In this document: piece by piece, positions 36,849-64,000 of the stretch | Layout of the letters: each line of letters starts with the position of its first letter | Position numbering within the stretch: position 1 is the stretch's first letter | NCBI GenBank assembly: GCA_038883655.1 | Contig: JAVZLQ010000001.1 | Span: 160,001 to 224,000 of the forward strand | Origin: Candidatus Bathyarchaeia archaeon | GTDB lineage: Archaea; Thermoproteota; Bathyarchaeia; Bathyarchaeales; Bathycorpusculaceae | DNA length: 64,000 nucleotides | Direction: 5' to 3' | Position numbers and translations under genes: made by a program | The notes under the pieces: model-generated | Told to the model about the DNA's origin: nothing | The model's input: the letters and a program-made list of their open reading frames with translations, nothing else | Database searches by the model: none

Positions 36849-37406
36849 ATGGATGTGGAAAAGGAAAAAGCTGCTGTTAAGGCTGAATTCAGAGTCAGGG
36901 GTTTGCTATTGGAGAAAGGCGTCAAAATTTCGGAGAAGCAAAGCGTTGATGAGCTTTCCTCAAAAGGCTATGGCATGGCTGAAGATAATTCGCTTATCCT
37001 AGCCTTTTACGAGGCACTTTATCTTCTGGAGAAGGGATTACTCGAAGTTGAGAATGAAAGTGGCAAGACTGTTGACTTTAAGGGACTCTTACAACTTTAT
37101 GAGCGGGTTGACGAAAATGCGTGGGCGAAATATTTGGTGTACCGCGACTTGAGAAGTAGGGGTTACGTTGTTCGTGAAGGTTTTGGTTTGGGTGTTGATT
37201 TTCGTGTTTATGAAAGAGGCGAGTATGGTAAGGATACTGCCAAATACCTAATTTTGAACATTCAGGAGGGCAAGCCAATTTCGGTTGAGGATTTAACCCG
37301 CATTATGAGGCAGTGTCAAAGCCTCAAGAAGGAGCTTATTTTGGCTGTTATGAACCGTAGGGGAGAAACTGTTTACTATTCCCTTTCACAATTAAACCTA
37401 CCATAA
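36849..37406 (+). CDS. endA: tRNA splicing endonuclease subunit, probably structural (beta)
   Basis: YEALYL and VYRDLRSRGYVVREG..DFRVY motifs; no His at the catalytic position (TAKYLI). Confidence 0.85.
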   Translation: MDVEKEKAAVKAEFRVRGLLLEKGVKISEKQSVDELSSKGYGMAEDNSLILAFYEALYLLEKGLLEVENESGKTVDFKGLLQLYERVDENAWAKYLVYRDLRSRGYVVREGFGLGVDFRVYERGEYGKDTAKYLILNIQEGKPISVEDLTRIMRQCQSLKKELILAVMNRRGETVYYSLSQLNLP

Positions 37407-44511: not shown

Positions 44512-44526
44512 CGAAATCTTTTAAAA
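44512..44526 (+). promoter_or_regulatory. Putative BRE/TATA promoter of tRNA-Thr
   Basis: CGAAA followed by TTTTAAAA about 25 nt upstream of the tRNA 5' end. Confidence 0.45.
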
Positions 44527-44550
44527 AATATGATGTGTATACTTGTTTGG

Positions 44551-44646
44551 GCCTCGGTAGCTCAGCCTGGTGGAGCATCGCCTTGGTAAGGCGGTGGTCG
44601 CGGGTTCAAATCCCGCCCGAGAACCGCCGTGTGCGGTCGGGAAGCT
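44551..44646 (+). tRNA. tRNA-Thr(GGT) with 22-nt BHB intron at 70/71 (44622-44643); integration target
   Basis: GCCTCGG pairs with CCGAG|GC only after intron removal; anticodon arm TCGCC-TT GGT AA-GGCGG; discriminator T. Confidence 0.9.
44578..44627 (+). repeat. attL (3' half of tRNA-Thr plus intron start)
   Basis: Identical to 49420-49469; similarity continues to about 44657/49499. Confidence 0.95.
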
Positions 44647-44826
44647 TTGGTTTGAACCCGCCTTGCCGCCGTTAGTGTTGTTTAGGGCGTTTTGGATGTT
44701 TAGGTTTGAGAGGTGGGCGATTGCTTGTTTTAGGGCGTTTTCTGTGAATTGTGAGATGTTTATGCCTAATTCTTTAGCTTTTTTGACTGTTTCGGCGTCT
44801 ATTGAAAGGGTTAGTTTTGTTTTCAC
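44578..44826 (-). CDS. Integrase N-terminal fragment int(N), with RHH-like domain
   Basis: GTG start after GGTGA; KTKLTLSID..AKELGINISQFTENAL; reads through att in frame with int(C). In the integrated state the ORF runs on to a stop at 44521. Confidence 0.85.
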
Positions 44827-44870
44827 GTTCTCACCTACACGTATATTCACGTATGACAAATATTTACCAT

Positions 44871-45017
44871 TCACTCTTTTTTTTCTGTTTCGATGAGTTT
44901 GGCGATGGCGTATTCTATGGCGTGACTTCTATTAGCAAAGCGTAGTTTCTGCACTTGGTCATCTATCCATTTAACGAAGTCTTCTCTTATGGTTACGTAA
45001 ACTCTTATTTTTGGCAT
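44871..45017 (-). CDS. CopG/ribbon-helix-helix protein (48 aa, not in ORF track)
   Basis: Hand translation: MPKIRVYVTIREDFVKWIDDQVQKLRFANRSHAIEYAIAKLIETEKKE. Confidence 0.85.
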   Translation of the reverse strand: MPKIRVYVTIREDFVKWIDDQVQKLRFANRSHAIEYAIAKLIETEKKE

Positions 45018-45139
45018 TTCAACCATTCTTTTTTACCTTCCCATATGAGTAGTTTATCCACAACTATACTCAAATATACACAAATCTTATAGATTTTCCG
45101 TTCAAAAATAGGATTTGCCTTTAAGGTGAGTGTGAGAAA

Positions 45140-45358
45140 ATGGAAAAGACGGAAATCAGCTTCTTTGGAAAGAGAAAGTGGCATATTCCCAGAAAATATA
45201 TTGTGGTTTCAAAGCGTCTTTGCAGCAGAGAGTTTAAGAAGTTGAGGCAATGGTTAGACGATAAAGACAGAATAGAGATAGGCACGGATTCAGAAGGGCG
45301 AATTTGGATTTTAAACGAAACCAAAGTTGGAGAGCATTTAAAAAGACAAAATAATTAA
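45140..45358 (+). CDS. Element hypothetical protein (72 aa)
   Basis: GGTGA upstream; basic protein; no recognised family. Confidence 0.55.
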   Translation: MEKTEISFFGKRKWHIPRKYIVVSKRLCSREFKKLRQWLDDKDRIEIGTDSEGRIWILNETKVGEHLKRQNN

Positions 45359-45368
45359 GCGCTATTGC

Positions 45369-45749
45369 CTATTTGCCTTCCAGCTTCCCCTTTTTCTTGT
45401 CAAGAGAACTCTTATTAATTGGAATTTCCGAAGGACTGAAATTTAACAGTCTTGATAATGGCAGGTCTGCAATATCAAATTCTTGAACAAAAGTTTTAAG
45501 ATGTCGTGCAAGTTGCAGAACATCTGCTTCTGGACTGTAATAATAGGGTTGAAATTTATGTCTCAAAATTAATCCTTTATTGATGAGTTTGTTTATACTT
45601 CTGGTTAAAAGTCTGTTGAAGGTATCCTCAGAATAAAACTCTTTAAATTTCGGATAAACAGCATTAAAGATTTCTTTTCGAGATTGCCATTCAGAGCATT
45701 TTTTCAAATATTCTCGTATTGCGTTTTCTATGTTGTCCATTATGGACAT
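45369..45749 (-). CDS. Winged-helix-like protein
   Basis: IREYL..SRKEIFNAV..LTRSINKLINKGLI pattern. Confidence 0.6.
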   Translation of the reverse strand: MSIMDNIENAIREYLKKCSEWQSRKEIFNAVYPKFKEFYSEDTFNRLLTRSINKLINKGLILRHKFQPYYYSPEADVLQLARHLKTFVQEFDIADLPLSRLLNFSPSEIPINKSSLDKKKGKLEGK

Positions 45750-45796
45750 ATCTGACTGAATGACAATTTAAGACTTACTGACAAAGGTGTGTAAAC

Positions 45797-45949
45797 ATGG
45801 AAAAAGTTAGAATAAGCGTAAGAATTGATGGAGAAGACTTCAAAAGAATCCAGGAAACCATAAAGAAGGCGTATCCGACTTTACGGTCTATTTCAGACGT
45901 GGTTCGCCAAGCTCTGAAAGAGTTTTTAATAAAATATGAAAGTGTGTGA
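45797..45949 (+). CDS. Ribbon-helix-helix protein (50 aa, not in ORF track)
   Basis: Hand translation: MEKVRISVRIDGEDFKRIQETIKKAYPTLRSISDVVRQALKEFLIKYESV. Confidence 0.82.
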   Translation: MEKVRISVRIDGEDFKRIQETIKKAYPTLRSISDVVRQALKEFLIKYESV

Positions 45950-46136
45950 GTGTATGTGTGTGTATTATAGAATGTCTGTCTTGTCTTTCTTCTTTTCTTC
46001 TTTCTTCTTTACCCCTAATATACATATACATACACACATACACACTAAACACACACCTTCACTAAGAAAGCAAGTTAAGCGGCGGCGAAGCTCTGCTTCT
46101 TTTCCCATAATACACACACTCACACATACACACACC
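45942..46136. repeat. TG/CA-rich imperfect inverted repeat around a pyrimidine tract; candidate origin
   Basis: gtgtgtgtattat (45956-45968) is the reverse complement of ataatacacacac (46107-46119); TTCT tract and further CA runs lie between. Confidence 0.7.
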
Positions 46137-46143
46137 CTTAAAG

Positions 46144-46398
46144 GTGATGTTCATGGTTAGACGAGACGGAGCAGAAATAAGAAAAGAAAGAATTCAAGAA
46201 GTAATTAGACGAGTTGTCGCCCTTCTCTACAACCATGATGAAGTTGAACTAGAATCCACAGTCGCCATGCTTCAATACGAAACAGGATTAAGACCAGACA
46301 AAATAATGGAATACCTATCAATTGGAGACCAGCTTAAACGGTTCGAGCTTGACATAGACAAAAATAAAATTAGAAAAATAAAAGCTGATGAAACATGA
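46144..46398 (+). CDS. Element small winged-helix-like protein
   Basis: GGTGA RBS; helices plus ETGLRPDKIMEYL and a terminal beta-hairpin. Confidence 0.65.
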   Translation: MMFMVRRDGAEIRKERIQEVIRRVVALLYNHDEVELESTVAMLQYETGLRPDKIMEYLSIGDQLKRFELDIDKNKIRKIKADET

Positions 46399-46520
46399 GT
46401 CTTTATGAGTTTGGTGTTTTGGTTCTTGTTCTCGTCGTGTTTTTCTAGTTGTTTTGGCATATCTGGTTAATGCCTTCTGGAGCTGGAAACTATGAGAACT
46501 AAAATTTTAATTCGCTATAA

Positions 46521-46748
46521 GTGGTGCAAAACCGCCATACTCTTTTACCCCTAATACTGTTTGTCATTGCAATATTAACAAGCATAGAACCGCACTTCTA
46601 TCCACTGTTCATATTCTTCTCAGTGGATTTTCTATTGATAGTTAGCGCCGCCTTCTACCTAATCGTTGAACATGGAATTAAAATCTTCAATAAATATGAA
46701 GATAAAGAGTTATATGGTTTATTGCAAAAAGCTGATAAATGGATTTAA
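46521..46748 (+). CDS. Small 2-TM membrane protein
   Basis: Two hydrophobic segments; start uncertain. Confidence 0.5.
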   Translation: MVQNRHTLLPLILFVIAILTSIEPHFYPLFIFFSVDFLLIVSAAFYLIVEHGIKIFNKYEDKELYGLLQKADKWI

Positions 46749-46763
46749 CCTTATATTAGAAGG

Positions 46764-47072
46764 ATGACAATGAACATAAATAAGAGGGTTATAATTTTTA
46801 GCATATTGCTAATTTACTTTTTGCCTACATTGATTGAGTGGATTCAAATTTTTAATGAAACTTCCAAGTATGGTTATCCCCAAAGCAATAGATATTTTGA
46901 AATATTCTTAATATTCTTCCTATCATCTTTCATTTGGATGCCAATTGCAATATTTTTTTATTTCCCTACGCCATTAATATGGAAAATCAGTTTAGCTTCG
47001 TATTATATTATCGCCTACGGAATTTTGGCATGCATAATCCTTTACAAATATAGAAAAATTAGAAAAAATTAG
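46764..47072 (+). CDS. Small 3-TM membrane protein
   Basis: Three hydrophobic segments and a basic C-terminus; AT-rich. Confidence 0.6.
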   Translation: MTMNINKRVIIFSILLIYFLPTLIEWIQIFNETSKYGYPQSNRYFEIFLIFFLSSFIWMPIAIFFYFPTPLIWKISLASYYIIAYGILACIILYKYRKIRKN

Positions 47073-47075
47073 TTT

Positions 47076-48119
47076 TTAAATTCTATCAAAAAACCATTTC
47101 CCTAAAATTATGCCAAATAAAATCGTTCCAATAACAATCGCATAATTTTTGGGGTCTTCATACCATTTTTCTATTGAAGGGATGCTTTCCCCTTTAATTT
47201 GTGCAATATATTGTTTAGTTAAATTGTAAAGATAGTATGGGTCATTATTCCATGCATCACGGTCATAATGCGGTTCAATTGCTGTGCGCTCTGGGAATTC
47301 ATTCCAAGTAGCAATTGTTACAATATCAATTTTATTTGCCTTTGCATATTTGATAGCATCTTTCCATTCATTTTCATAAATTGGCAATGATAAATCTTTA
47401 TTTATTGTGTAATTAGGATAGCGCACATAAAAATCATCATATCGCGGACATAAAGGATACATTCGACAATAAGGTATATCGTAAAACTTGTTATTTTTCC
47501 ATGACTGATATGGTTCATATCCTTCAAAATGCGAATAAACAAAATTACAGAATGAAAAATGTCCAGAAAATTTTACGGTAAAACGGTCATCATATTGAAA
47601 TTTTGAAAAATCTGTTAAATTTGGAGCATTCCAAAAGAGAATTAATGGTTTGTTATCCATTATGAAACATAGGGAATAGTAAGGCAAAATATAATTTTCG
47701 TAAACGTAATCATAGATAGATTTATAATCGTAAATTCCAGATTGGTTAAAATCTTCAACCATCAAACAAAATTTAATGTTTGAAACTTGATTTTTTGCGC
47801 ATTCATAAACCAATTTAGCATTATTATCTATGTGATTGCCTATTCCCCACCATGAAATTATGACAAAATCTATTTTAAGGTCATTCCACCATTCTAAATG
47901 CTGATTAATAACCGTTATATTTCCGCTATTGTAATAACCTAAAATTGGTTTATCTTGATGCGTTGGGTATGACCAATTATAATAGGCATCTGGAGAATCG
48001 GGGTCATACCAAACATAATAGTATATGCCTACTTTGATTTTAGGCGTTTCTGAATAGGCGCATGGAATGCAAAGTAGCAAAAAACATAAAAAAAGGGGAG
48101 TTGAAGGGGGGACATTCAT
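47076..48119 (-). CDS. Membrane-anchored GH99-like glycoside hydrolase
   Basis: Signal peptide; YYYVWY, GYYNS, ISWWG and TWNEFPERTAIEP motifs; C-terminal TM; start set at MNVPP. Confidence 0.8.
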   Translation of the reverse strand: MNVPPSTPLFLCFLLLCIPCAYSETPKIKVGIYYYVWYDPDSPDAYYNWSYPTHQDKPILGYYNSGNITVINQHLEWWNDLKIDFVIISWWGIGNHIDNNAKLVYECAKNQVSNIKFCLMVEDFNQSGIYDYKSIYDYVYENYILPYYSLCFIMDNKPLILFWNAPNLTDFSKFQYDDRFTVKFSGHFSFCNFVYSHFEGYEPYQSWKNNKFYDIPYCRMYPLCPRYDDFYVRYPNYTINKDLSLPIYENEWKDAIKYAKANKIDIVTIATWNEFPERTAIEPHYDRDAWNNDPYYLYNLTKQYIAQIKGESIPSIEKWYEDPKNYAIVIGTILFGIILGKWFFDRI

Positions 48120-48406
48120 GTTTTTATACCGCCCTACGTAGTATTCCAATAGCTATGCCTAATAGCGCAATGCTGAATATTACATATATCCATTGCGATA
48201 TCATTACAGATGCAGATGAAGTCATACGTTTTAGGAATATTCCAAGAACAACCGTGCAGTTTGACCCTTACCGCATTGCCGTCTGGAAGTTGGAAAGTGA
48301 CAAAAAAACCATAGATATTATAGATAGAGACATAAAAATCGCATTAGATTATGTTAAGTTGGATTCGCATGAAGTCATGCAAAAATACGCTTTAAAAATA
48401 CCGTAG
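48062..48406 (+). CDS. Hypothetical protein (start uncertain)
   Basis: Open frame in the gap between GH99 and int(C); no motif. Confidence 0.3.
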   Translation: MECKVAKNIKKGELKGGHSCFYTALRSIPIAMPNSAMLNITYIHCDIITDADEVIRFRNIPRTTVQFDPYRIAVWKLESDKKTIDIIDRDIKIALDYVKLDSHEVMQKYALKIP

Positions 48407-48585
48407 CGACTTAACATGGGCAGTCAAGCGCGGAATATCTAAACTCTATGATGTGGTAGTGCGTGTTGAGAGGAAACAAGCATTAGATAATTCTACAAAC
48501 ATGCTTTAAACATTGAAATTTTATGGAAAAGTTATCGCCTTTTCGAGGCGATTGAAGTTTGTGGAAATATAAAAAAGTAGGAAGT

Positions 48586-49419
48586 TTAAGTGATTTTAGA
48601 TTGTATTTCCGCTATGCCTTTGAACACTCTTTCCTTCAAATCGCTTATCAACGCGGGATTAAAGTAGTTCTGCATGAAAACGCTTATGCCTATCCGTCCA
48701 TGTATGAAATCGATTTCTGGCGGTTTAAGGTATTGAGTCATTAGGGTAGCGTGAGCTTCTCTTATGTCTCCAAATTTGCATTCTAATCCGCGTTTCTGTA
48801 GTCGTTGGAGAATTGCGTGTGCGCTTGGCAAGGGTTTACTACAACTTATCTTTTCAATTATTTCTTTTGGCATGAAGACAACAAAGCTCTTTTTTGTGCG
48901 TCTTATGAATTTGTTTTTAAACTTGTAGTTTTCCAAAGCACAATTTTCACAGTTGTAGTATTCGCTTAACTTTCCTTCTCTATGGAGCTGGATTATCAAG
49001 TTGTAGCTTTCCACTGCTTCAACTAACCGCATACCGCTATACGTAATGAAATCAAAGAATAACGCCAAATCTGGAAAATCCGCCTTAATTTGTTTAACCC
49101 ACTGGAAAATGCTTTCTGGGTCTATAACCTTTGTTAATCGTTGAATCAAAAGGTCATCTTTCGCCTTTCCACTCCATTTCAAACCGTAGCTTCTAACTAG
49201 TTGTTTGAACTTCTCGTAAACTCCCAAATACTTCGCTAACACACTTAACGCCTTCAACACGTGACCACGCTTGTCATCACTTAAAACCATCAAATCACTC
49301 AAGTTCTCACTAACCAAACAATGCGCATACTGTCTAGCATAACTGAACCTTTCCCTCGCCCTATTACGCTTATACAACTTCAACAAATACTCAAAGAAAC
49401 CATCCCAATCAATCAAAAG
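48586..49419 (-). CDS. Integrase C-terminal catalytic fragment int(C)
   Basis: SGMRLVEA (R), TKK, DIREAHAT, IDFIHGR and QNYF (Tyr); begins immediately at attR. Confidence 0.9.
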   Translation of the reverse strand, partial: LLIDWDGFFEYLLKLYKRNRARERFSYARQYAHCLVSENLSDLMVLSDDKRGHVLKALSVLAKYLGVYEKFKQLVRSYGLKWSGKAKDDLLIQRLTKVIDPESIFQWVKQIKADFPDLALFFDFITYSGMRLVEAVESYNLIIQLHREGKLSEYYNCENCALENYKFKNKFIRRTKKSFVVFMPKEIIEKISCSKPLPSAHAILQRLQKRGLECKFGDIREAHATLMTQYLKPPEIDFIHGRIGISVFMQNYFNPALISDLKERVFKGIAEIQSKIT

Positions 49420-49469
49420 TCGCCTTGGTAAGGCGGTGGTCGCGGGTTCAAATCCCGCCCGAGAACCGC
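49420..49469 (+). repeat. attR (duplicate 3' half of tRNA-Thr; intron-containing end extends to 49488)
   Basis: Exact 50-bp copy of 44578-44627. Confidence 0.95.
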
Positions 49470-49536
49470 TTTGGGCGGTCGGGAAGCTCTGATTTGAACT
49501 CGCGATCGCATTCGCTTCATTGTTTAGTGCTTGTTT
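49470..49536 (-). pseudogene. Remnant of int(N) from an older related element
   Basis: Translates KQALNNEANAIASSNQSFPTAQS, collinear with int(N) QNALNNTNGGKAGSNQSFPTAHG; upstream in-frame stop at 49537-49539. Confidence 0.7.
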
Positions 49537-49815
49537 TTAAGCCAATACTGATCTATCCCCCTAGGATTCTTTAGAAAATGGTGTATAGCCACAGCCTTAT
49601 TTTCCCTACCCCTCCCTCTAGGCATAAGACATCCAAAAAGTGTAGATCGTTAATTAGCCTTAGATCTGCACGTATAGTTAAAGATTCACGAGCAAATTGA
49701 AGGGCAGAAGTAAAAATGATAATTTTGAATTAGATGTCTATAAGGCGCATTTAGCCATAAATGTTTTCGAAAATCTTAAATGAAAATGATTTGATAACGT
49801 CTAAATGGTGTTATA

Positions 49816-50379
49816 ATGTCTAGAAAGGAATTTATTTATAAACTACCTCGTACATTCGAAGTTCTTGACGAAGAGGAACTTTCTCGAGATATACCCAAAC
49901 TGGATTTAGAGGAAGTTTATTTTGATGAAGTCAAAGAAGGGGATTTATCGATCATGAAAGTTCCTGTCACCTCCAAGATTGTTAAGTTATTTGCTATGAT
50001 TAGTGGAGATTATAATCCTCTTCATGTGGATGAGGAATTTGCAAGGACGCTTCCTCCAAAACTTTTTGGTGGAAAAAATATAGCGCATGGGATTCTTTTA
50101 AACTCTTTTTTAAGCGCGTTGATTACGCTTTCCTTTGGGAAAGGAGTAACGTTACTAGAATGGAAAGATCAGAAATTCAAAAGGCCTGTGAAGGTTGGAG
50201 ACACAATAACGGCAAAGCTTGAAGTTGTAAGGAAGTATACAGAAGTTGTAAAGGAAAAAGAGAGACTATTCCTCGAATTAAAAGGATCAATTTTGACCTC
50301 TTCGGAAGAGGGGGAGATAGAGGCAACAAGTTGCTTAATTCTTGTCACATTATTTAAGAAGTCAAGAAAATTAATGTAA
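49816..50379 (+). CDS. MaoC/PhaJ-like (R)-enoyl-CoA hydratase
   Basis: FAMISGDYNPLHVD, IAHG and FKRPVKVGDTI motifs. Confidence 0.88.
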   Translation: MSRKEFIYKLPRTFEVLDEEELSRDIPKLDLEEVYFDEVKEGDLSIMKVPVTSKIVKLFAMISGDYNPLHVDEEFARTLPPKLFGGKNIAHGILLNSFLSALITLSFGKGVTLLEWKDQKFKRPVKVGDTITAKLEVVRKYTEVVKEKERLFLELKGSILTSSEEGEIEATSCLILVTLFKKSRKLM

Positions 50380-50396
50380 CATGTCATAGCGGTTTA

Positions 50397-51188
50397 TCAT
50401 TGTTGCTCCTTGATAAATTGTAATGCTATGTTGTTGAATTCTTCTGGACGTTCCCAGATTACCGCGTGCCCTGAATTCTTTATTGCGACAAAACGCGATC
50501 CTTGTATTTTGTTATGAATTATTTTAGAGTACTTTGGAGGCTTTATTTTATCATTTTCTGCAGCAATAATTAATGTCGGCTTTTTGATTTTGTAAAGTTC
50601 AGGTGTTATATTTAACTGCATAAAACCCTTTAGCAATTCAATAAAAGCATCAATGTCAACTGCGGTGTCATAAATTGGGGCTGTGCCACTCACGAAATCC
50701 CACCTTTTTTCTATGAACTCGTCAGAGAAAATATCCGGATAAACCGCTTGGAAAAGATACTTTCCACTTCTGAGTCTAGCCGCAATTAGCCATCTCTCAA
50801 CTATGGCTTTGACCACTGGATCTACGTGGCTTACTGCACAAGACACAATTAAAGATTTCACCATCTCCGGATATCTCGTTGCAAAGATTAAGGCAACCTC
50901 TCCGCCGAAAGATATTCCAACAATGTGGGCGCTTTGTATCTTTAGTTTCTGCATTAGTGCCCTAAGATCTTCTACATGAAGCTCCATAGGATATTTCATT
51001 AATGGCTTTTCCGATTTCCCTTGCCCCCTAAAATCTAACAAGAGCGTTTGAAATTGTTTTGCAAAATAGGGCACTTGATTCATCCAGCTTGAAGTGTTTG
51101 CAAGTATTCCGTTAAGAAAAACTATTGTTTCGCCGGCACCATGCAGCTCATAATACATTTGAATATCGTTTATTTTAGCGTAGGGCAT
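50397..51188 (-). CDS. Alpha/beta hydrolase
   Basis: DFRGQGKS, GISFGG, ENDKI and SGH motifs; start set at MPYAK. Confidence 0.88.
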   Translation of the reverse strand: MPYAKINDIQMYYELHGAGETIVFLNGILANTSSWMNQVPYFAKQFQTLLLDFRGQGKSEKPLMKYPMELHVEDLRALMQKLKIQSAHIVGISFGGEVALIFATRYPEMVKSLIVSCAVSHVDPVVKAIVERWLIAARLRSGKYLFQAVYPDIFSDEFIEKRWDFVSGTAPIYDTAVDIDAFIELLKGFMQLNITPELYKIKKPTLIIAAENDKIKPPKYSKIIHNKIQGSRFVAIKNSGHAVIWERPEEFNNIALQFIKEQQ

Positions 51189-51216
51189 ACGGGCTACCTC
51201 CCCATTTCCATTTATG

Positions 51217-52755
51217 TTAACCATATTTTTCGATAAGCTTTTCCCGCAAAATTTTGCCAGCTGGAGTTTTTGGTATAGAATCCACATATTCTATAACTTT
51301 TGGAATTTTGTATTTTGCCATTTTGTCTTCACAATATTTGATAACTTCTTCTTTGCTCAGTTTTTCTCCAGCTTTCAACGCAATTAACGCTTTAGGAACT
51401 TCTCCCCATTTTTCATCCGGAATTCCGAAAACAACTGCTTCCTGTATTTTCGGATGGGAACTAAGTATTCTCTCGATTTCTTCCGGATAAATGCTCTCGC
51501 TTCCGCTCCTTATCACGTTTTTCTTTCTACCTACTATGTAAAAGAAACCTTCCTTGTCATATTCGACTATGTCGCCAGTATGAAGCCACCCATCTTCTAA
51601 CGCTCTTGATGTCTCTTCAGGGTTGTTCCAATAACCCCCAAAAAGCGATGGTGCTCTTATGAGAAGTTCGCCAGGAGTATTAGGAGCCACTTCTTCTCCT
51701 TTATCGTTTACTACTTTAACGTCGATCAGAAGGTTGGGTTTTCCTATGGAACCCATTTTATTTATTGCGTCTTTGGGGTCTAGTGCAAAAACCCCTGGTC
51801 CTGCTTCTGTAAGGCCGTATCCTTGCTTTACTAAGACACCCTTTTTCAAGAAGGCATCAACAATGTCCTTAGTCAGAGCAGCTCCTCCCGTCGTAAACCA
51901 ACGGACAGAGGTAAGGTCGGCTGTCTTAAACTTTGGCGATTCTATAAGCATCTTAAGTTGGGTGGGTACAAGAAACTGGAAAGTGACTCTCTCCTTTTCA
52001 ATCAGTTCTAGAAGCTTTTCTGGGTTCCATCTATACATGAGTATATTTGTGCCTTGCCAAAAAAGTAATGGCAATGTGTATGTGTATCCACCAATGTGAA
52101 ATAGTGGAACGCATGTGACAGTAACTTCGCCGGGCACTATTAAGTCCCTAATAGTTATCATAGCATTCCAAAATATCATTCTGTATGGTATAATTGCGCC
52201 TTTCGGTGTTCCAGTTGTTCCTCCAGTCTGCAAAATCATGAATGGGTCTTCTAAATTAACTGGTGTCGGTTTGTCTAATCTTTCCTCATAATCTACTAAA
52301 TTCTCAAAATCTATCGAATCTATTATGTGGCTCTTTCCTAAATGCACGAGCCAACTGCCTTTTATCTTTTTTAAATCTTCAACTTTTTCGGTAAATTCTT
52401 CTTCGTATATGAGAACTTTAGGCTTGATTAGTGTTATTTGCTCCTCTATCTCTCTAGATGTATATCTAGTGTTGACTGGTATGAAGATACCGCCTATTTT
52501 TGTTGTTGCAAATAGTGCATCCAGCATTTCTATGCGATTCCATGAGATCATCGCAACTCTATCGCCTTTTTTAAGTTTTAATTCGTTCTTAAAGAAAGCA
52601 GCAATTCCATCTACTCTTTCACTGAAAACCTTGTAAGTGAATCGTCTTTCACTTTTTTCATCTATCAAAGCAACGTGATTTGGGTTTATTTTTGCATGCT
52701 GAGCTATCCAGTTATTAACCCAGTAGCCTTGTGTTGCAACGTTTTCTACGTTCAT
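51217..52755 (-). CDS. Acyl-CoA synthetase (AMP-forming)
   Basis: TGGTTGTPKG, GYGLTE, LHTGD and PKTPAGK motifs. Confidence 0.92.
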   Translation of the reverse strand: MNVENVATQGYWVNNWIAQHAKINPNHVALIDEKSERRFTYKVFSERVDGIAAFFKNELKLKKGDRVAMISWNRIEMLDALFATTKIGGIFIPVNTRYTSREIEEQITLIKPKVLIYEEEFTEKVEDLKKIKGSWLVHLGKSHIIDSIDFENLVDYEERLDKPTPVNLEDPFMILQTGGTTGTPKGAIIPYRMIFWNAMITIRDLIVPGEVTVTCVPLFHIGGYTYTLPLLFWQGTNILMYRWNPEKLLELIEKERVTFQFLVPTQLKMLIESPKFKTADLTSVRWFTTGGAALTKDIVDAFLKKGVLVKQGYGLTEAGPGVFALDPKDAINKMGSIGKPNLLIDVKVVNDKGEEVAPNTPGELLIRAPSLFGGYWNNPEETSRALEDGWLHTGDIVEYDKEGFFYIVGRKKNVIRSGSESIYPEEIERILSSHPKIQEAVVFGIPDEKWGEVPKALIALKAGEKLSKEEVIKYCEDKMAKYKIPKVIEYVDSIPKTPAGKILREKLIEKYG

Positions 52756-52769
52756 ATCTCTTCCTTTAA

Positions 52770-53765
52770 TTATATCCATCTAAATAATGCGGCAGACATC
52801 ACGTATCCTACGCCAGAAGTGCAGAAGCACACAAGGTCATCTTTCTTAATTTTCCCTTGTTCCAGAGCGTCATGCAACGCGAATATCACGCATGCCGACC
52901 CGTTATATCCATATTTGTCCATTATCCAGTGAGTCTTTGTTAAGGGTAGGCCAAGTTCCTTCATAACATCCTTTATTGTATTTACGTTTACCTGCGTCAT
53001 CAATATCATATTTAAGTCTTCTACCTTATATCCCGCTTTCTTCACGGTGTCTCTAATAAGCTGAGGCCAATGCGCAAAGTTTATATCCGCTGGGTAGCGA
53101 TGACCACTTTCATGAAATCGTAAATAATGTTTTTTCTCTTCCACCATTTTGATGGTTATTGGGTTAGCTGTGCCCACGTAAATGCCGTAACAGTCCCAGT
53201 AACTTCCGTCAGCAATAATTTTTGAAGTTATATATCCAGGCTTATCCGAGGCGGTCAATATTACTGCTCCAGCACCATCGCTAAAAATCGGGGCTAGCCA
53301 CTTTTCGTTCCAGTCAAGCCACTTAGTCATTCCATAGGATCCTGTTACAAGTACATAATTTATGCTTGGGTCATTCATAATGTAGTTTGATGCTATAGAA
53401 AGAGCGATGGGCACGTCTGTACAAGCGGCATTAATATCGAAGCAACCTGCATTTTTGGCTCCAAGCTTGTGTTGAATAACGGCTGATGTTGGTGGACTTA
53501 CAAAGTCGGGAGTATCAGTAGCTAAGATAAGGAGATCTAAATCTTCTGGCTTTAAATTTGCATTTTTAAGTGCGTGTCGAGCTGCTTCTACAGCCATATC
53601 AGAAGTAGCCTCGTTAGGTTCTGAAATGTGTCTTAAAGTGATTCCTGTTCTTGGGCGAAGCCATCCATCAACATCAAATCCTATTCGTTTTCCTAATTCT
53701 TCGTTTGTTTCAACTTTTTTCGGTAGGTAAATTCCTGTGCTCAAAATTTTTGCGTATCTATTCAT
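52770..53765 (-). CDS. KAS III (FabH)-fold enzyme with atypical active site
   Basis: ATDTPD, FDINAAC and FSDGAGA motifs; TQVN and GYNGSA replace HQAN and GNTS. Confidence 0.85.
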   Translation of the reverse strand: MNRYAKILSTGIYLPKKVETNEELGKRIGFDVDGWLRPRTGITLRHISEPNEATSDMAVEAARHALKNANLKPEDLDLLILATDTPDFVSPPTSAVIQHKLGAKNAGCFDINAACTDVPIALSIASNYIMNDPSINYVLVTGSYGMTKWLDWNEKWLAPIFSDGAGAVILTASDKPGYITSKIIADGSYWDCYGIYVGTANPITIKMVEEKKHYLRFHESGHRYPADINFAHWPQLIRDTVKKAGYKVEDLNMILMTQVNVNTIKDVMKELGLPLTKTHWIMDKYGYNGSACVIFALHDALEQGKIKKDDLVCFCTSGVGYVMSAALFRWI

Positions 53766-53777
53766 ATCTCCAATCTC

Positions 53778-54542
53778 CTAAATTTTTATTTTATGTAGAA
53801 ATTCTTCCAATAAGCTATTGAATTTTTCTGGGGCTTCTCTATTCGGCAAGTGCCCAACGCCTGGTATTATTTGCAAGATTGATCCCTGTATGGATTTGCT
53901 TATTGTTTCGGCGGAGCTTACTGGAGTGACTATGTCAAGATCTCCTACTATTATAAGTGTTGGAACTTTGATTTTCGGCAAGAGTTCGGAGTAGTCAAGC
54001 ATGGACGTTGCCTCTGCTGATTGAATGTAGACGTCTTTTCTGGTTCCTGCAATCATCTTTGCTACTTCTTCTTTGAGTTGTTCTGGTGCATTCGCAGCGA
54101 GGGCGAATGTGGCTACTTCAGCGCCAATTATTTCCATGCTCATGCCTTCTAAGACTGCAGTTTGTGCTGGTGGAAATTTGTGTCTAGCAGCCACTAAGAT
54201 CATGCTTAAAAAGTAGTCTGGATATTTTTTGTACATTTCAAAAAGAACTAATGCGCCCATTGAAAGACCGCAAAAATGCGCCTTTTTTATCCCTAAATGG
54301 TCAAGTAGACTTTTGACATCCTCTGCAAAATCTTCAATTTCGATTTTCTTTTTTGGGGTACTTGACTTTCCATGCCCTCGCAAGTCCAAAGCAACAACCC
54401 TGAATTTTTCAGAAAAAAAGTTAACTTGGTGTCTCCAACTCTCAAGAGATTCTCCTAACCCGTGAATAAAAACAATGTTTTCAGATCCTGTTCCCTCGAA
54501 CACGTAGTTTATCTTTACGCCGTTTATTTCAACTTGAGGCAA
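53778..54542 (-). CDS. Alpha/beta hydrolase (enol-lactonase-like)
   Basis: FIHGLG, DLRGHG, GLSMGA, GDLD and GH motifs. Confidence 0.88.
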   Translation of the reverse strand: MPQVEINGVKINYVFEGTGSENIVFIHGLGESLESWRHQVNFFSEKFRVVALDLRGHGKSSTPKKKIEIEDFAEDVKSLLDHLGIKKAHFCGLSMGALVLFEMYKKYPDYFLSMILVAARHKFPPAQTAVLEGMSMEIIGAEVATFALAANAPEQLKEEVAKMIAGTRKDVYIQSAEATSMLDYSELLPKIKVPTLIIVGDLDIVTPVSSAETISKSIQGSILQIIPGVGHLPNREAPEKFNSLLEEFLHKIKI

Positions 54543-54635
54543 GCAAAGTTCTCCCCGACATATAATTCTAGATTAGTATTTTTGGCATTTGTAATTATTT
54601 AAATCTAATTGCATAGTTTGTCGGTTATTAACGTT

Positions 54636-55358
54636 CTAAATACTTACTCCCAAATGCTTTCTTATCAATTCTTTATCTTCCGCCACATCTTCCATATTAC
54701 CATGGTGAACTATTTTGCCCATTTCCAGAATGTAACATTCATCTCCAACTTCTCTTGCCAATTTGAAGCTCTGCTCCACTAAAATCATTGTGACTTGCTC
54801 TTTAAGTTTAACCAATGTTTCTGAAAACTTCTTTACAAGGATAGGGCTTAACCCCTCTGTTGGCTCATCAATTAAAAGGAGCTCGTTTTTATTAATTATT
54901 GCACGGGCAATCAGCAGCATTTTTTGTTGTCCACCGCTTAAATTATGAGCTTTATCTTTCAACATATTTTTTAGATTTGGAAATATGTCGAAAATGAATT
55001 GTAACCTTTCTTTATAGGAATCTTCTGGGCCTTTGAATGCTATTTGAAGGTTTTCTTCAACTGTTAGCTTACCAAAAATTTTTCTTTGAGAGGGAACATA
55101 AGCGATTCCCTTCCTTGCGATTTCGTACGTGGGTAATTTTGTTATTTCTTCTCCCTTGAAGATTACCTTTCCTGACTTGGTGGGAATAATATTCATTATG
55201 CTTTTAAGCAGAGTTGTTTTACCTGCACCATTTCTTCCAAGTATTACAGTTAACTTGCCTTTTTCAGCAGCGAATGATACTCCTTGAAGTATGTGAAATG
55301 GACCAATATAGGTGTGCATGTCTTCGACGTGCAGCAACCCCACTTTAGTCTCCTCCAA
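54636..55358 (-). CDS. livF: LIV-type ABC transporter ATPase
   Basis: GRNGAGKTT, LSGGQQ and DEPTEGL motifs. Confidence 0.9.
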   Translation of the reverse strand: MEETKVGLLHVEDMHTYIGPFHILQGVSFAAEKGKLTVILGRNGAGKTTLLKSIMNIIPTKSGKVIFKGEEITKLPTYEIARKGIAYVPSQRKIFGKLTVEENLQIAFKGPEDSYKERLQFIFDIFPNLKNMLKDKAHNLSGGQQKMLLIARAIINKNELLLIDEPTEGLSPILVKKFSETLVKLKEQVTMILVEQSFKLAREVGDECYILEMGKIVHHGNMEDVAEDKELIRKHLGVSI

Positions 55359-56106
55359 GGTAAACTTTTTGAACTAATTCATTTTCGGCAATTTCTTTTG
55401 GAGTACCATCCGCAATAACAGCCCCTTCATGCATAACCATAACCGAGTCACATATGCCCATAATAACATCAATCTTGTGTTCAACGAGAAGAATTGTAAT
55501 TTTTGAATTCTGCTTTATTTTTCGTATTGCATTCACAACGTCTGGCACTTCCTCCATCGATACGCCTGCAGTAGGTTCATCAAGCAACAGAAGTTCTGGA
55601 TCTGTTGCGATTGCCATGGCAATTTCAAGTTTTCTTTGATCGCTATGCGGCAAGAAATTTACTGGATAAAATGCTTTTTGTTTTAAACCAATGCTTTCTA
55701 GAATTTCAAGGGCTCTTCTGTGATATTCTTTAAAGCGATCTATGCTAGAATAGAAATTGTAGTTTTCTCTTCCTATCGATTGTACGGCTAATCTTACATT
55801 TTCTAAGACTGATAATCTTGCAAAGACATTTGTTATTTGAAATGATCTGCTAATTCCTTTTTTAGAAATTTTGTTTGGTGGCAATCCAGTAATATCTTCT
55901 CCTTTAAAGAATATCCTTCCACTAGTGGGTTTCAGGAGTCCACAGATTAAGTTAAATAGCGTCGTTTTTCCAGCTCCGTTGGGGCCTATTAAGCCTTTGC
56001 AAATTCCTTGTTCTATGGTAATGCTGACGTTGTTAACTGCTGCCAATCCGCCGAATTTTTTGGTTAAGTCCCTTGTTTCTAATATAGCGCTGCTTAAATT
56101 CGTCAT
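55345..56106 (-). CDS. livG: LIV-type ABC transporter ATPase
   Basis: FGGLAAV, GPNGAGKTT, RSFQ, DEPTAG and VEH motifs. Confidence 0.9.
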   Translation of the reverse strand: MTNLSSAILETRDLTKKFGGLAAVNNVSITIEQGICKGLIGPNGAGKTTLFNLICGLLKPTSGRIFFKGEDITGLPPNKISKKGISRSFQITNVFARLSVLENVRLAVQSIGRENYNFYSSIDRFKEYHRRALEILESIGLKQKAFYPVNFLPHSDQRKLEIAMAIATDPELLLLDEPTAGVSMEEVPDVVNAIRKIKQNSKITILLVEHKIDVIMGICDSVMVMHEGAVIADGTPKEIAENELVQKVYLGGD

Positions 56107-56107
56107 T

Positions 56108-57358
56108 CTATTTACCTCTTATAGAAGTTTTTATTAATGTCGCTATTTTTTTGATGTTTTTCTTTACAGACACTCTCTTTAGTTTCCACGTAATTACAAT
56201 GCCGTATGGGAAGAATAATATTACAACTATGTAGAATACGCCCAAAACCAGCATCCAATACTCTCCAATACCACGAATGCTTGTCAACTCATTTGCTAAA
56301 AGCGTGATTATCCCTGCGCCAAGCATGGGTCCGACCAATGTGCCTAAACCGCCGAGGATGTTGTAAAGCAGTATATTTATCATGATAGCAGAGCTTAGAA
56401 CACTGTATGGGCTGATGCTTAGGGCAAAGGGAGTGTAAAGTGCTCCAGCCAGGCTTGCAAACATGCTTGAAATGATTGAAGCAATTAACTTGTAAATTGG
56501 CACGTCATAACCCAACATTTTCGTTCTTTCCTCGTTTTCTCTAATAGCCACAAATATTTTACCCATTGGAGAGTCTATGATTCTCTTTGCAATGAGGTAA
56601 CATATTGCAATAGGAAGTAAAGCGATAAGGTAGTATGTGTTCGTGACCATTATCATCGTGTTTTTCTCCCTGATTGATCCCTCTAGAAGGATATTCAGTT
56701 TCGATGGAAAACTGTAGATTAATATCGCAAGAACTGCTGCTATGAAAGCGCAATATGCGATTTTGTTCTTGATAGCTTTATTCTTATTTGCCAAGTCACG
56801 TAATATGGTCAAAAATAGCATAATCACTATTGCGATAGAAATTACAAACATCGCGTAGATAATTAAATCGAATCTTAAAAATTCGGGTCTTGGAACAGAA
56901 AGTCCGGTTTCGCCCCCTGACAGTTCAACCCATTTGTTGAAAATTGCGAAAATCATCTCTGCAAAGGCCAGTGTAACTAATGCATAGTATATTCCGCTAA
57001 CTCTGAAGGTGAAGATGCCTAATGCCAGCCCAACTAGCGCGCCAAATAATATTGCTATCAAAACAGCTAAGAGAAAGGGAAAATTCATCCTTAAAAGTAA
57101 TGCGACCACATAAGCGCCGATGCCGAATGGTGCAGCATGGCCAAAACTTACCAAACTTGTGTAGCCCAAGGCTAAGTCGTAGCTCATAGCGAGTAACGCC
57201 CAAATGAGCATTTCTGTTAGCAGTGATAAGTAATACACGGAAGGCGTTGCTATCGGAAAAGTAAACAATAATGCGAAGCTTGCCAGCAGAAGTTTCTTTT
57301 TTGTCAAAACTTCAAAGCTGCGTTTGATGATTTTGATCATATTATTTTCCCACGCCAA
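56108..57358 (-). CDS. livM: LIV-type ABC transporter permease
   Basis: SFGHAA, GGETG, AIRENE and GGLGTLVGP motifs. Confidence 0.88.
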   Translation of the reverse strand: MAWENNMIKIIKRSFEVLTKKKLLLASFALLFTFPIATPSVYYLSLLTEMLIWALLAMSYDLALGYTSLVSFGHAAPFGIGAYVVALLLRMNFPFLLAVLIAILFGALVGLALGIFTFRVSGIYYALVTLAFAEMIFAIFNKWVELSGGETGLSVPRPEFLRFDLIIYAMFVISIAIVIMLFLTILRDLANKNKAIKNKIAYCAFIAAVLAILIYSFPSKLNILLEGSIREKNTMIMVTNTYYLIALLPIAICYLIAKRIIDSPMGKIFVAIRENEERTKMLGYDVPIYKLIASIISSMFASLAGALYTPFALSISPYSVLSSAIMINILLYNILGGLGTLVGPMLGAGIITLLANELTSIRGIGEYWMLVLGVFYIVVILFFPYGIVITWKLKRVSVKKNIKKIATLIKTSIRGK

Positions 57359-58178
57359 ATAGTCCTTCTGTTCTTATCAGTAGAACAATAGCCATCGCCA
57401 GAAAGTCAATAACAAAAGTTAGTTGAGGGAAGAAATATTCTGAGAGTCCATGAAGCATTCCAATTATGAGGCTCCCATAAAAAGAGCCCTTAAAGCTTCC
57501 TAATCCGCCAACCACCGTTACAACTAGGCTAGTGAACATCCATGTCGACCCCATCTGTGGCGTTGCTCCGAGCCAAGGTACTGCAGAAGCCCCGCCGAAA
57601 GCGGCTAGTAAGGCTCCGAATCCAAATGTTAACGTGAAAACTCTTTTTATGTTGATGCCTAAAGCTTCCACCATCTCCGCATCCTCTGTTCCTGCTTGGA
57701 CGATTATGCCCATTTTGGTTCGAGTTAAAAGTAGATATGTAAAGACAGCAATCATGAAACCGAGGAATGCGAGAAAAGTTCGATATGCTGAACCACTAAG
57801 GTATGGCAGATAGAAAATTTTTGGTGTGCGTCCCCAAATTATTAGCACAAGTTGAGAGAATAAGAGTAAATAGCCCAATGTAAGCATTATTTGAGCTATT
57901 GGATTGCCATGTACACGGCGAAGGGTTAAGCGTTCGACTATTACCCCTATCAAGAAGCCGAAAAAGGCTGCGCAGATTAATGCAACAGCAAAATTGTTAG
58001 TTAATTCGAAAAATGTTACGGCAATGTAGGCTCCTATCATGAAAAAGGCTCCATGGGCAAAGTTTAGGATTCCCATTAAACCAAATATTATGGAGAAGCC
58101 AGATGCTATGAGAAAGAGTAGCATTGAGTAAGCTAATCCATCTAGAATTGCAGCTGCGACCAGATTTGGATCAATCAT
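57342..58178 (-). CDS. livH: LIV-type ABC transporter permease
   Basis: GILNFAHGAF and VVGGLGS motifs. Confidence 0.9.
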   Translation of the reverse strand: MIDPNLVAAAILDGLAYSMLLFLIASGFSIIFGLMGILNFAHGAFFMIGAYIAVTFFELTNNFAVALICAAFFGFLIGVIVERLTLRRVHGNPIAQIMLTLGYLLLFSQLVLIIWGRTPKIFYLPYLSGSAYRTFLAFLGFMIAVFTYLLLTRTKMGIIVQAGTEDAEMVEALGINIKRVFTLTFGFGALLAAFGGASAVPWLGATPQMGSTWMFTSLVVTVVGGLGSFKGSFYGSLIIGMLHGLSEYFFPQLTFVIDFLAMAIVLLIRTEGLFGVGK

Positions 58179-58280
58179 GTGAAAATCTCCAGTTCATGTG
58201 GCTGAGCTAAAATTTTATATTAAAAAAGGTTTATAAAACTTGTTTTAATCATAGTTTGAAGCTTAGGGGAGTAAAAACTA

Positions 58281-60179: not shown

Positions 60180-60243
60180 AGCTCGCGGAAAGCGCACAAA
60201 TCTTATTAATTTATAACTTAAAATAATACATTCGGGTTATAAC

Positions 60244-61785: not shown

Positions 61786-61861
61786 ACCTAACAAACCTCA
61801 CTTTTCTTTTTCACTTCAACATAAGAAACTGTAATATAAGATATTCTCAACTAGTTTAAGT

Positions 61862-63721: not shown

Positions 63722-63796
63722 TCTACAAATTTTCTATAAAAAAGTTCCACAAAACCTTTATAAAATTAATCAACAATATAACCTCACGGTGTTCTT

Positions 63797-64000
63797 ATGA
63801 AAAAAATAAATAAAGTATCCAGCGTTACAATCGTTGTTTTGTGTCTAATGGCTCTATTACTATTTCAGAGATCAATAAGAGTGGTAGGTAGTGACGAAAC
63901 CTCTGACTGGACCATGTACCGCCATGACGTTAACAGAAGCGGACATACACAAATTGCTGGGCCAAAATATAGCTTCACAAAATGGACGCACCAAACTGGT
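63797..64000 (+). CDS. Second PQQ-like beta-propeller protein, truncated by the window edge
   Basis: Hand translation gives a signal peptide then DWTMYRHDVNRSG..GP...KW, like the N-terminus of 60244. Confidence 0.75.
   Translation, partial: MKKINKVSSVTIVVLCLMALLLFQRSIRVVGSDETSDWTMYRHDVNRSGHTQIAGPKYSFTKWTHQTG

Follow-up and report, generated by a model that had tools for sequence, protein, structure and literature searches.

How archaeal tRNA genes gain introns at noncanonical positions is an old open question, and delivery by a mobile element was proposed as an answer in 2012 from a single locus. That report describes the tRNA-Thr(GGU) gene of Caldiarchaeum subterraneum as heterogeneous and proposes that an intron-bearing attP recombined with an attB lacking an intron and that the intron at position 24/25 came about in this way (Sugahara et al. 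2012, PMC3293823), a proposal restated by Badel et al. 2021 (PMC8371274). Integrations into intron-containing tRNA genes are noted by Krupovic et al. 2019 (PMC6563490), a 2026 preprint on Asgard tRNA introns reports 71 gain calls with no mobile-element association, and PMC4090602 and PMC3293823 relay the hypothesis of Randau and Soll (2008) that tRNA introns protect genes from integration. Here, we describe a concrete and repeated case from Bathyarchaeia, in which an SSV-type integrative element, called E1, quite probably delivers a spliceable intron to the tRNA-Thr(GGU) gene of its host via the attP arm carried within its integrase gene. The locus lies in G000:C1:160001-224000 (genome label G000), a 64-kb stretch of DNA that we call the window and whose first letter is position 1 of all coordinates given without a contig name.

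The locus resembles the Caldiarchaeum model in the tRNA species, in an intron-bearing attP, in the gain of an intron by the rebuilt tRNA, and in a displaced tRNA fragment. The Caldiarchaeum intron, however, sits at 24/25 in the 5' part of the gene, next to a 1.9-kb insert like a pNOB8-type element whose putative recombinase gene does not overlap the tRNA, and it was described from one population. The E1 intron instead sits at 70/71 in the acceptor stem, inside the open reading frame (ORF) of an SSV-type integrase, and introns of this type occur in four genomes from three genera and in one metagenome contig, as three variants and with displaced ends visible. That an attP can carry an intron into a tRNA gene has therefore already been proposed in print. 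What this locus adds are the SSV-type setting, the translation of the intron as an integrase linker, the acceptor-stem position, the outer helix between T arm and trailer, the recurrence in several hosts with variants, the visible displaced ends, and an intron that leaves renewed integration possible. Nothing in the literature searched, including the accessible parts of PMC8371274, PMC7253208, PMC6563490, and PMC10848311, describes an SSV-type att site or integrase ORF that contains an intron; the supplementary att tables of PMC6563490 could bear on the point.

G000 is a 1.42-Mb metagenome-assembled genome (MAG) in 19 contigs, 93% complete and with 6.5% estimated contamination. Sequencing runs containing this DNA carry the label hot springs metagenome, and the related integrase loci come from Bathyarchaeia records. 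For comparison, 401 sampled genomes of the class and 332 genomes of the family (70 genera) were scanned for the insert motif, and 301 family genomes for the integrase; metagenomes were scanned with the exact motif, which diverged introns would escape. In the window, an 84-nt direct repeat (44578-44661 and 49420-49503, 93% identical, spacing 4842) brackets 4.8 kb of DNA, and both copies carry a 22-nt insert near the end of the tRNA sequence. The two copies differ at 6 of 84 positions: three of the five positions of a hairpin loop (CGTGT versus TTTGG), which hold all the differences within tRNA part and insert, and three further ones in the trailer. A 25-nt probe over the exon/insert junction matches the window exactly twice, versus 0 matches expected from 100 shuffles. 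The sequence-only reading from which we started had described an intron in both att copies with differences limited to the loop, and this description proved accurate for tRNA and intron. The features concerned are as follows.

44551..44621, plus strand: tRNA-Thr(GGU) exon 1, positions 1-70 (ARAGORN, Rfam, orthologues)
44616..44619, plus strand: CCCG, 5' strand of the predicted bulge-helix-bulge (BHB) central helix, tRNA positions 65-68; its four pairs are invariant in six copies
44620-44622 and 44642-44644, plus strand: bulge 1 (AGA) and bulge 2 (AAG)
44622..44643, plus strand: predicted BHB intron of 22 nt between tRNA positions 70 and 71 (sequence, fold, pair counts, orthologues)
44623-27/44633-37, 44628-32, and 44638-41, plus strand: within the intron, the h' stem, the loop, and the 3' strand of the H helix
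44644..44646, plus strand: exon 2, i.e., G71, C72, and discriminator U73 (GCT; orthologues read CCCGAG|GCT)
44649..44661, plus strand: trailer strand, 13-bp pairing with T-arm strand 44600-44612 as the BHB outer helix
44578-44621, within attL: 44-nt core, tRNA positions 28-70 (attL/attR identity in G505)
44578..44661, no strand: attL, the 84-nt repeat (repeat search)
49420..49503, no strand: attR, with the second intron copy at 49464-49485 (loop TTTGG), GCT at 49486-88, and the trailer helix strand at 49491-49503
44521..44874, minus strand: Int(N), N-terminal integrase fragment with a ribbon-helix-helix (RHH) domain (translation; Pfam CcdA/RHH-like match, 5e-08)
48586..49416, minus strand: Int(C), catalytic part of an SSV-type tyrosine integrase, 276 aa (Pfam PF16795, PHROG, fold search)
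44578-49503: E1, SSV-type integrative element of ~4.8 kb (att repeats and split integrase)

The position of the insert follows from the tRNA itself. ARAGORN calls an uninterrupted tRNA-Thr(GGU) at 44551-44625 whose acceptor stem has two mismatched pairs at its top, and the Rfam tRNA model aligns at model positions 3-68 only, in window 44553-44621; the mismatches and the end at 44621 both fit a break after tRNA position 70. Exon 1 shares 89-99% identity with orthologues that continue directly into GCT, and in all 29 loci from 29 related genomes CCCGAG runs directly into GCT, often GCTCCA; one of these is ended by its contig just after GCTT, and two have an unrelated insert in the anticodon loop. 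Between CCCGAG and GCT, the 22 nt of G000 provide two 3-nt bulges around a 4-bp H helix (CCCG/CGGG), followed on the inside by a 5-bp stem (ACCGC/GCGGT) with a 5-nt loop and on the outside by the pair G64:C72, a small internal loop, and the 13-bp helix of T arm and trailer. By sequence and fold this is an hBHBh' arrangement, with two 3-nt bulges, a 4-bp helix, and flanking helices. ViennaRNA recovers both outer helix and inner hairpin; the z-scores are -3.0 to -5.0 for stretches of 69 nt and 114 nt, but only -0.9 for the 37-nt core by itself. Compared with the strict 3-4-3 register, which is one of two folds with an equal number of base pairs (nine in H and h' helices together), the minimum-energy fold has one A-U pair shifted.

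BHB motifs are usually cut two bases into each bulge. Cuts at these places are predicted to leave exon 1 ending in G70 and exon 2 starting with G71-C72-U73, and the predicted spliced product ...CCCGAG-GCU is identical to all 29 uninterrupted orthologues. With the 22 nt removed, the mature 3' end would read ...CCCGAGGCU(CCA). G000 encodes RtcB and two EndA homologues (PF01974), one with the usual histidine context and one without it; such a pair would fit a heterotetrameric endonuclease. One EndA gene is at G000:C1:274106-274723, and the other, apparently for the noncatalytic paralogue, lies in the window itself (36849-37406, plus strand, 185 aa), 7 kb upstream of the intron-bearing tRNA. We infer splicing from structure and from necessity, since the Rfam model stops at positions 3-68 and ARAGORN found no second tRNA-Thr gene in the whole G000 assembly, this tRNA-Thr(GGU) being the only one found. 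The same ARAGORN search found no UGU or CGU isoacceptor, and about one-third of the tRNA genes it detected contain introns, of up to 90 nt; further tRNAs may be hidden by noncanonical introns or unassembled. Splicing of an antisense integrase mRNA was also considered and rejected, because in the reverse complement each bulge lies 5' of its central helix strand, an arrangement that mirrors a BHB, and because removal of 22 nt breaks the frame.

Short BHB introns at noncanonical positions of archaeal tRNAs have reportedly been described by Marck and Grosjean in 2003, by Sugahara in 2008, and by Fujishima in 2010, the last under the heading of intron transposition. The insert of E1 shares with them its small size, noncanonical position, and 3-4-3 BHB, as well as a host with two EndA paralogues. 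Their transposition is deduced from the similarity between introns of different tRNAs, whereas here the carrier is identified as the att arm of an integrase, and the opposite strand of the intron is translated as well. Precursors of split and permuted tRNAs carry long leader or trailer helices beside the BHB. The 13-bp helix of T arm and trailer likewise lengthens the BHB and is in competition with the mature fold, yet it forms in cis within one transcript, and one of its strands is the tRNA's own T arm.

E1 has a classical SSV-type partitioned integrase. The Int(N) frame reads through attL into the tRNA, its residues 1-99 are part of the intact gene, and it is in frame with Int(C), which starts at attR. 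When both are joined as in attP, a single ORF of 376 aa results, in which the 22 nt are codons 78-85 and the attP position corresponds to the linker between the N-terminal RHH domain and the catalytic domain. The minus-strand translation reads ...SFPTAHGGSRAGFEPATTALPRR over attL and ...SFPTAQSGSRAGFEPATTALPRR over attR, as the sequence-only reading had given, and trailer strand 44649-44661 also codes for integrase residues AGSNQ. The view that this DNA is at once tRNA exon, BHB intron, and integrase code therefore holds, with splicing as a prediction. For Int(C), PF16795 ('Archaeal phage integrase') scores 37.1 bits against a cut-off of 27, and the PHROG integrase match has an E-value of 2.3e-12. 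Neither the integrase nor a 14-sequence profile gave a relevant match in sequence searches of the PDB. For the AlphaFold model of the 276-aa ORF (pLDDT 85.5), each of the ten best fold matches in the PDB is a tyrosine recombinase, with weak E-values of 0.005-0.8; the target-normalised TM score with the SSV1 integrase is 0.67. The candidate catalytic residues R130, K175, R219, R241, and Y251 (R..K..R/H..R..Y) are invariant across 14 homologues. E1 thus shares with SSV1 and other SSV-type 'suicidal' integrases the PF16795 tyrosine recombinase, an attP inside int, and a core, here of 44 bp, that matches the 3' part of a tRNA; it differs from SSV1 in that the likeness is at the level of fold, in its N-terminal RHH domain, and in its intron-bearing attP arm.

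We propose that recombination within the 44-bp core, which is identical to tRNA-Thr(GGU) positions 28-70, splits the integrase gene and would swap the host sequence 3' of the core for the element arm, namely the 22-nt insert, G71-C72-U73, and the trailer that pairs with the T arm. A canonical BHB would then form from insert, final exon bases, and trailer, the host EndA would cut after G70 and before G71, and RtcB would join the exons into the same mature tRNA as in the relatives. The host's intron-less 3' end, in turn, would be displaced downstream to the other att site.

The insert motif occurs in 4 of the 332 family genomes (3 of 70 genera), in 3 of the 401 class genomes, and in one metagenome contig, with 0 matches in viral contigs, and each intron-bearing tRNA found directly adjoins an Int(N) frame of E1's integrase family. 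A sequence-blind search of the 332 genomes for any non-G after the conserved CCCGAG gave eight places in seven genomes, i.e., the five known copies and three tRNA fragments without a 5' half, so that a further full tRNA interrupted at this point was not among them; the T-arm/acceptor motif itself is present in 125 of the 332. In G505, attL has the intron, and another att copy with the same 44-nt core runs straight into GCT and adjoins an Int(C) 73% identical to that of E1. Because the identity of the cores ends exactly at the exon/intron junction, the crossover would lie upstream of the intron, and the intron would move in the arm of the element. G135 likewise has one att copy with and one without the intron. 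In G235 the intron is kept beside a remnant of ~0.9 kb (Int(N) and one ORF), followed by host genes, and in both G235 and G135 the intron-bearing arrangement is the only full tRNA-Thr(GGU).

A displaced end is also visible in G000. A search of the window for an intron-less tRNA 3' end found none, as the sequence-only reading had stated, and an intron-less 11-nt remnant, CGCCCGAGGCT, is found at G000:C1:~228450, 23.8 kb downstream of the tRNA and 4.4 kb past the end of the window. G003, from the same genus, has a syntenic pair of tRNA-Leu and tRNA-Thr with neither element nor intron, and the flank downstream of this pair matches G000:C1:228448-229991 at 82% identity, directly after CGCCCGAGGCT. 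The comparison with empty sites that had been suggested to tell a gained from a captured intron thereby points to element-borne gain: all 29 loci are intron-less, including the syntenic one of the same genus. The evidence favours E1 as the vector that introduced the intron over its being the captor of a host intron, the two options that the sequence-only reading had left side by side.

We then compared the insert copies to see whether the BHB pairing is kept. Six were available: attL and attR of G000, tRNA-Thr of G235 and G135, which belong to one genus, tRNA-Thr of G505, from another genus, and metagenome contig L055, together representing three sequence variants with loops CGTGT, TTTGG, and GGAAA. 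Standard pairs fill all 138 cells formed by 23 pairs in six copies, against 20-51% in slid control pairings; broken pairing in related elements, which would have contradicted an intact BHB, is not seen in these copies. One pair is compensatory, the closing C-G of the inner stem being U-A in L055. In the outer helix, four pairs show one-sided changes to or from G-U, and all 13 pairs are kept in the six copies. The copies are few and closely related, and the counts are thus consistent with the structure rather than statistical proof of it; the covariation anticipated at the outset is confined to that single compensatory pair, and a shuffle control, given below, was not significant. The peptide encoded by the loop varies (TAHGG, TAQSG, and TVFHG), and changes in the trailer are mostly synonymous in the integrase frame.

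Several observations weigh against this reading. In 92 of the 500 shuffles the pairing values reach those observed, and the control is accordingly not significant; the mostly synonymous changes in the trailer helix could be explained by protein constraint. The unspliced gene can still be folded as a 75-nt tRNA by ARAGORN. No RNA runs were found among the listed runs carrying the stretch, and the 22-nt skip 44621>44644 is absent among 15 of the 22 joints in run contigs; the public run material consists of contigs, which cannot reveal splicing. A free element with intact attP was not found in viral contigs, where the motif scan gave 0 matches and the protein scan no relative. Several arguments depend on MAG contigs, the source genome itself being a MAG with the estimated contamination given above. 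The att copies of G505 and of G135 lie on different contigs, and in G135 both contigs continue for tens of kb, so that they are not the ends of one undisturbed element and a later rearrangement has to be assumed. The attR flank of G505 is not syntenic with tRNA-Thr in G494 or G465: its homologue in G494 adjoins tRNA-Gln, and G465 gave no flank match.

One could regard the 22 nt not as an intron at all, but as code for the integrase linker or as a hairpin for recombination or regulation with an incidental likeness to a BHB, in a tRNA that is damaged or used unspliced. The GC-rich hairpins that relatives' integrase linkers hold outside any functional tRNA speak for such an explanation, as do the largely synonymous trailer changes, the status of splicing as a prediction, and a MAG that, at 93% completeness, could leave another tRNA-Thr gene unassembled. 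It would, however, have to account for a 3-4-3 BHB in the one register that restores G70|G71-C72-U73, for the same arrangement in the sole full tRNA-Thr(GGU) of two other genomes, for a compensatory pair where the encoded peptide varies, and for an insert that outlives the decay of the element to ~0.9 kb in G235, which fits a need of the tRNA and not of the integrase; we hold it to be very improbable. That the att copies are a mis-assembled duplication is a concern with any MAG, where repeats often break or duplicate contigs. The six differences in 84 positions, the different flanks, contigs of public run X1 that separately cover each att junction, and the recurrence of the architecture in three other genomes and one metagenome contig leave this concern a negligible probability. 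X1 may be the source sample, and its coverage is then not independent. Contigs from runs X2-X4 of a second study cover 44598-44785 without gaps and with attR-like trailer letters, from which it follows only that some att variant with the intron is present there. Two further joints, 44576>49441 (side 20) and 49359>44572 (side 38), have coordinates unlike those of the empty site or the circle junction; both probably stem from other tRNA-Thr variants, and we draw nothing from them.

A different objection accepts the intron and reverses its history, such that it arose in a host tRNA-Thr(GGU) lineage and was copied into attP by the element to match its hosts. E1 itself entered an intron-bearing tRNA (attR), so that element and intron-bearing host do coexist, and host sampling is incomplete, the metagenome scan being one for the exact motif. 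Yet no tRNA-Thr with the intron and without an adjacent Int(N) occurs in the 332 family or 401 class genomes, the 29 orthologues are uniformly intron-less, and intron-less displaced ends lie in the same genomes as intron-bearing genes. Moreover, core homology stops exactly at the intron, and ordinary site-specific recombination would therefore never carry host sequence 3' of the core into the element. Capture thus appears improbable to us, and delivery by the element remains our preferred explanation.

With delivery by E1 as the working model, the right side of the element suggests an older layer at the same locus, marked by one further feature.

49504..49536, minus strand: remnant of an earlier related Int(N), open frame (K)QALNNEANAIAS, compare attL QNALNNTNGGKAG

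Since an integrase-like frame runs ~11 codons past attR, attR would once have been the attL of an older related element. We infer from this that two integrations took place at the locus: an earlier element or island would have brought the intron with the TTTGG loop, and E1 would then have entered the rebuilt tRNA with its CGTGT-loop copy. The 14.3 kb to the right of attR, with acyl-CoA, lipid, and ABC-transport genes, have no DNA counterpart in three genomes of the same genus (matches of at most 218 nt) and may be the cargo of that older island. The whole region of ~19 kb from attR to the displaced tRNA end (window 49600-63900 and on to G000:C1:228447) is probably a metabolic island at the same tRNA; its genes include a MaoC dehydratase, two alpha/beta hydrolases, an acyl-CoA synthetase, a KAS III-like enzyme, and a Liv-type ABC transporter, with small winged helix-turn-helix and zinc-finger ORFs near its right end. 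Like the hypothesis of Randau and Soll, the locus links tRNA introns with integrating elements. The intron is no barrier here, because the 44-bp core upstream of it is intact and because E1 entered an intron-bearing copy; for the latter reason, we also rejected the idea that the intron blocks further integration.

The GC content of E1 is 34.8%, compared with 43.9% in the left and 39.4% in the right flank, and its interior contains the following.

44662..48585, no strand: E1 body, with small genes and a GT/CA-rich stretch
44871-45026 (minus strand) and 45797-45949 (plus strand): small RHH/Arc-like genes inside the E1 body
Also in the E1 body: two small membrane ORFs and a 357-aa ORF with a weak GH99-like match

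A GT/CA-rich low-complexity stretch at 45932-46140 gives sub-threshold matches to the mir-297 and mir-466 models on both strands; the contigs of the public runs break there, and it is possibly an origin or spacer region.

Relatives of the integrase (E <= 1e-20) occur in 106 of the 301 family genomes, and the 34 loci inspected adjoin the 3' parts of many different tRNAs. Four relatives that target tRNA-Thr(GGU) (L067, L068, L079, and L080) have an intron-less att, so that the intron is confined to a sub-lineage of the integrase family. The earlier suggestion that the element family rebuilds its host tRNA solely through splicing is thereby narrowed to this sub-lineage, for which splicing is likely, and does not extend to the four intron-less relatives. 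Intact homologues with RHH domain, linker, and catalytic domain are found at L038 and L064. In G035, a decayed intron-less remnant reads ...GSNTKPRAGFEP where E1 has ...GSNQSFPTAHGGSRAGFEP; this one remnant weakly suggests that a gain of 22 nt and a loss of 1 nt, a net change of 7 codons, kept the integrase in frame. A second integrase of E1's family is encoded in G000 itself (G000:C5:8192-9013, 53% identical to E1 Int(C)). A close relative of Int(C) at L050/L079 (G135:C8:23421-24243, 66-72% identical) is broken, with one and two in-frame TGA stops in its two matched pieces and, according to six-frame translation, a probable mid-gene frameshift; directly after the intron-less att of L079 lies an unrelated integrase-like gene, and this tRNA end is a hot spot for tandem elements.

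GC-rich hairpins just before the catalytic domain are present in the integrase linkers of L079 (G135:C8), L089 (G505:C19:255-280), L072, L077, L062/L037, L083, and L038. In tRNA sense they sit just 5' of the tRNA-like part of att and share a GA(A/G)AACC...GGTTTC theme, and the one of L083 has CGAGAACCGC in common with the exon/intron junction of E1. E1 has no hairpin at this position, its intron hairpin lying on the opposite side of the core. Such linker hairpins might possibly be raw material for att-borne introns. The integrase linker of L038, from an Aenigmatarchaeota genome, contains an almost complete tRNA-Met(CAU)-like sequence, oriented like the integrase gene, with an insert of ~55 nt in the anticodon-stem region that includes a GGAAACC...GGTTTCC hairpin, and is possibly another intron-containing att.

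In other strains and species of the family, tRNA-Thr(GGU) is interrupted elsewhere. At L028 (G002), L034 (G011), and L096 (G494), a different intron interrupts the anticodon loop at its canonical position, so that this tRNA is interrupted in at least two independent ways in the family; run contigs that end loosely at 44589 and 49430 were grouped with such anticodon-loop-intron variants. At L046 (G027:C17), an open frame directly upstream of the 5' end of tRNA-Thr reads toward the tRNA and has an RHH-like tail ...ITEQALNSILDYLETQ...; related sequence is present at L088 (G505:C8), and the frame could be the remnant of a different class of elements that uses the 5' side of the tRNA.

Donor, recombination core, displaced intron-less end, and state after decay are all visible at these loci, which makes this route of intron gain testable. 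The locus also argues against a simple view of introns as shields of tRNA genes from integration, and it is a compact case of a single piece of DNA on whose two strands three constraints act. It is tempting to speculate further, and with considerable doubt, that the 22-nt insert and its trailer have evolved as a portable BHB cassette under the joint constraints of tRNA exon, splice motif, and integrase linker, and that att arms might seed noncanonical introns that persist after the element has decayed, as in G235. If this were true, portable BHB cassettes in the att arms of SSV-type elements would be a general route by which archaeal tRNA genes acquire noncanonical introns, for which the hairpins of the relatives could be raw material.

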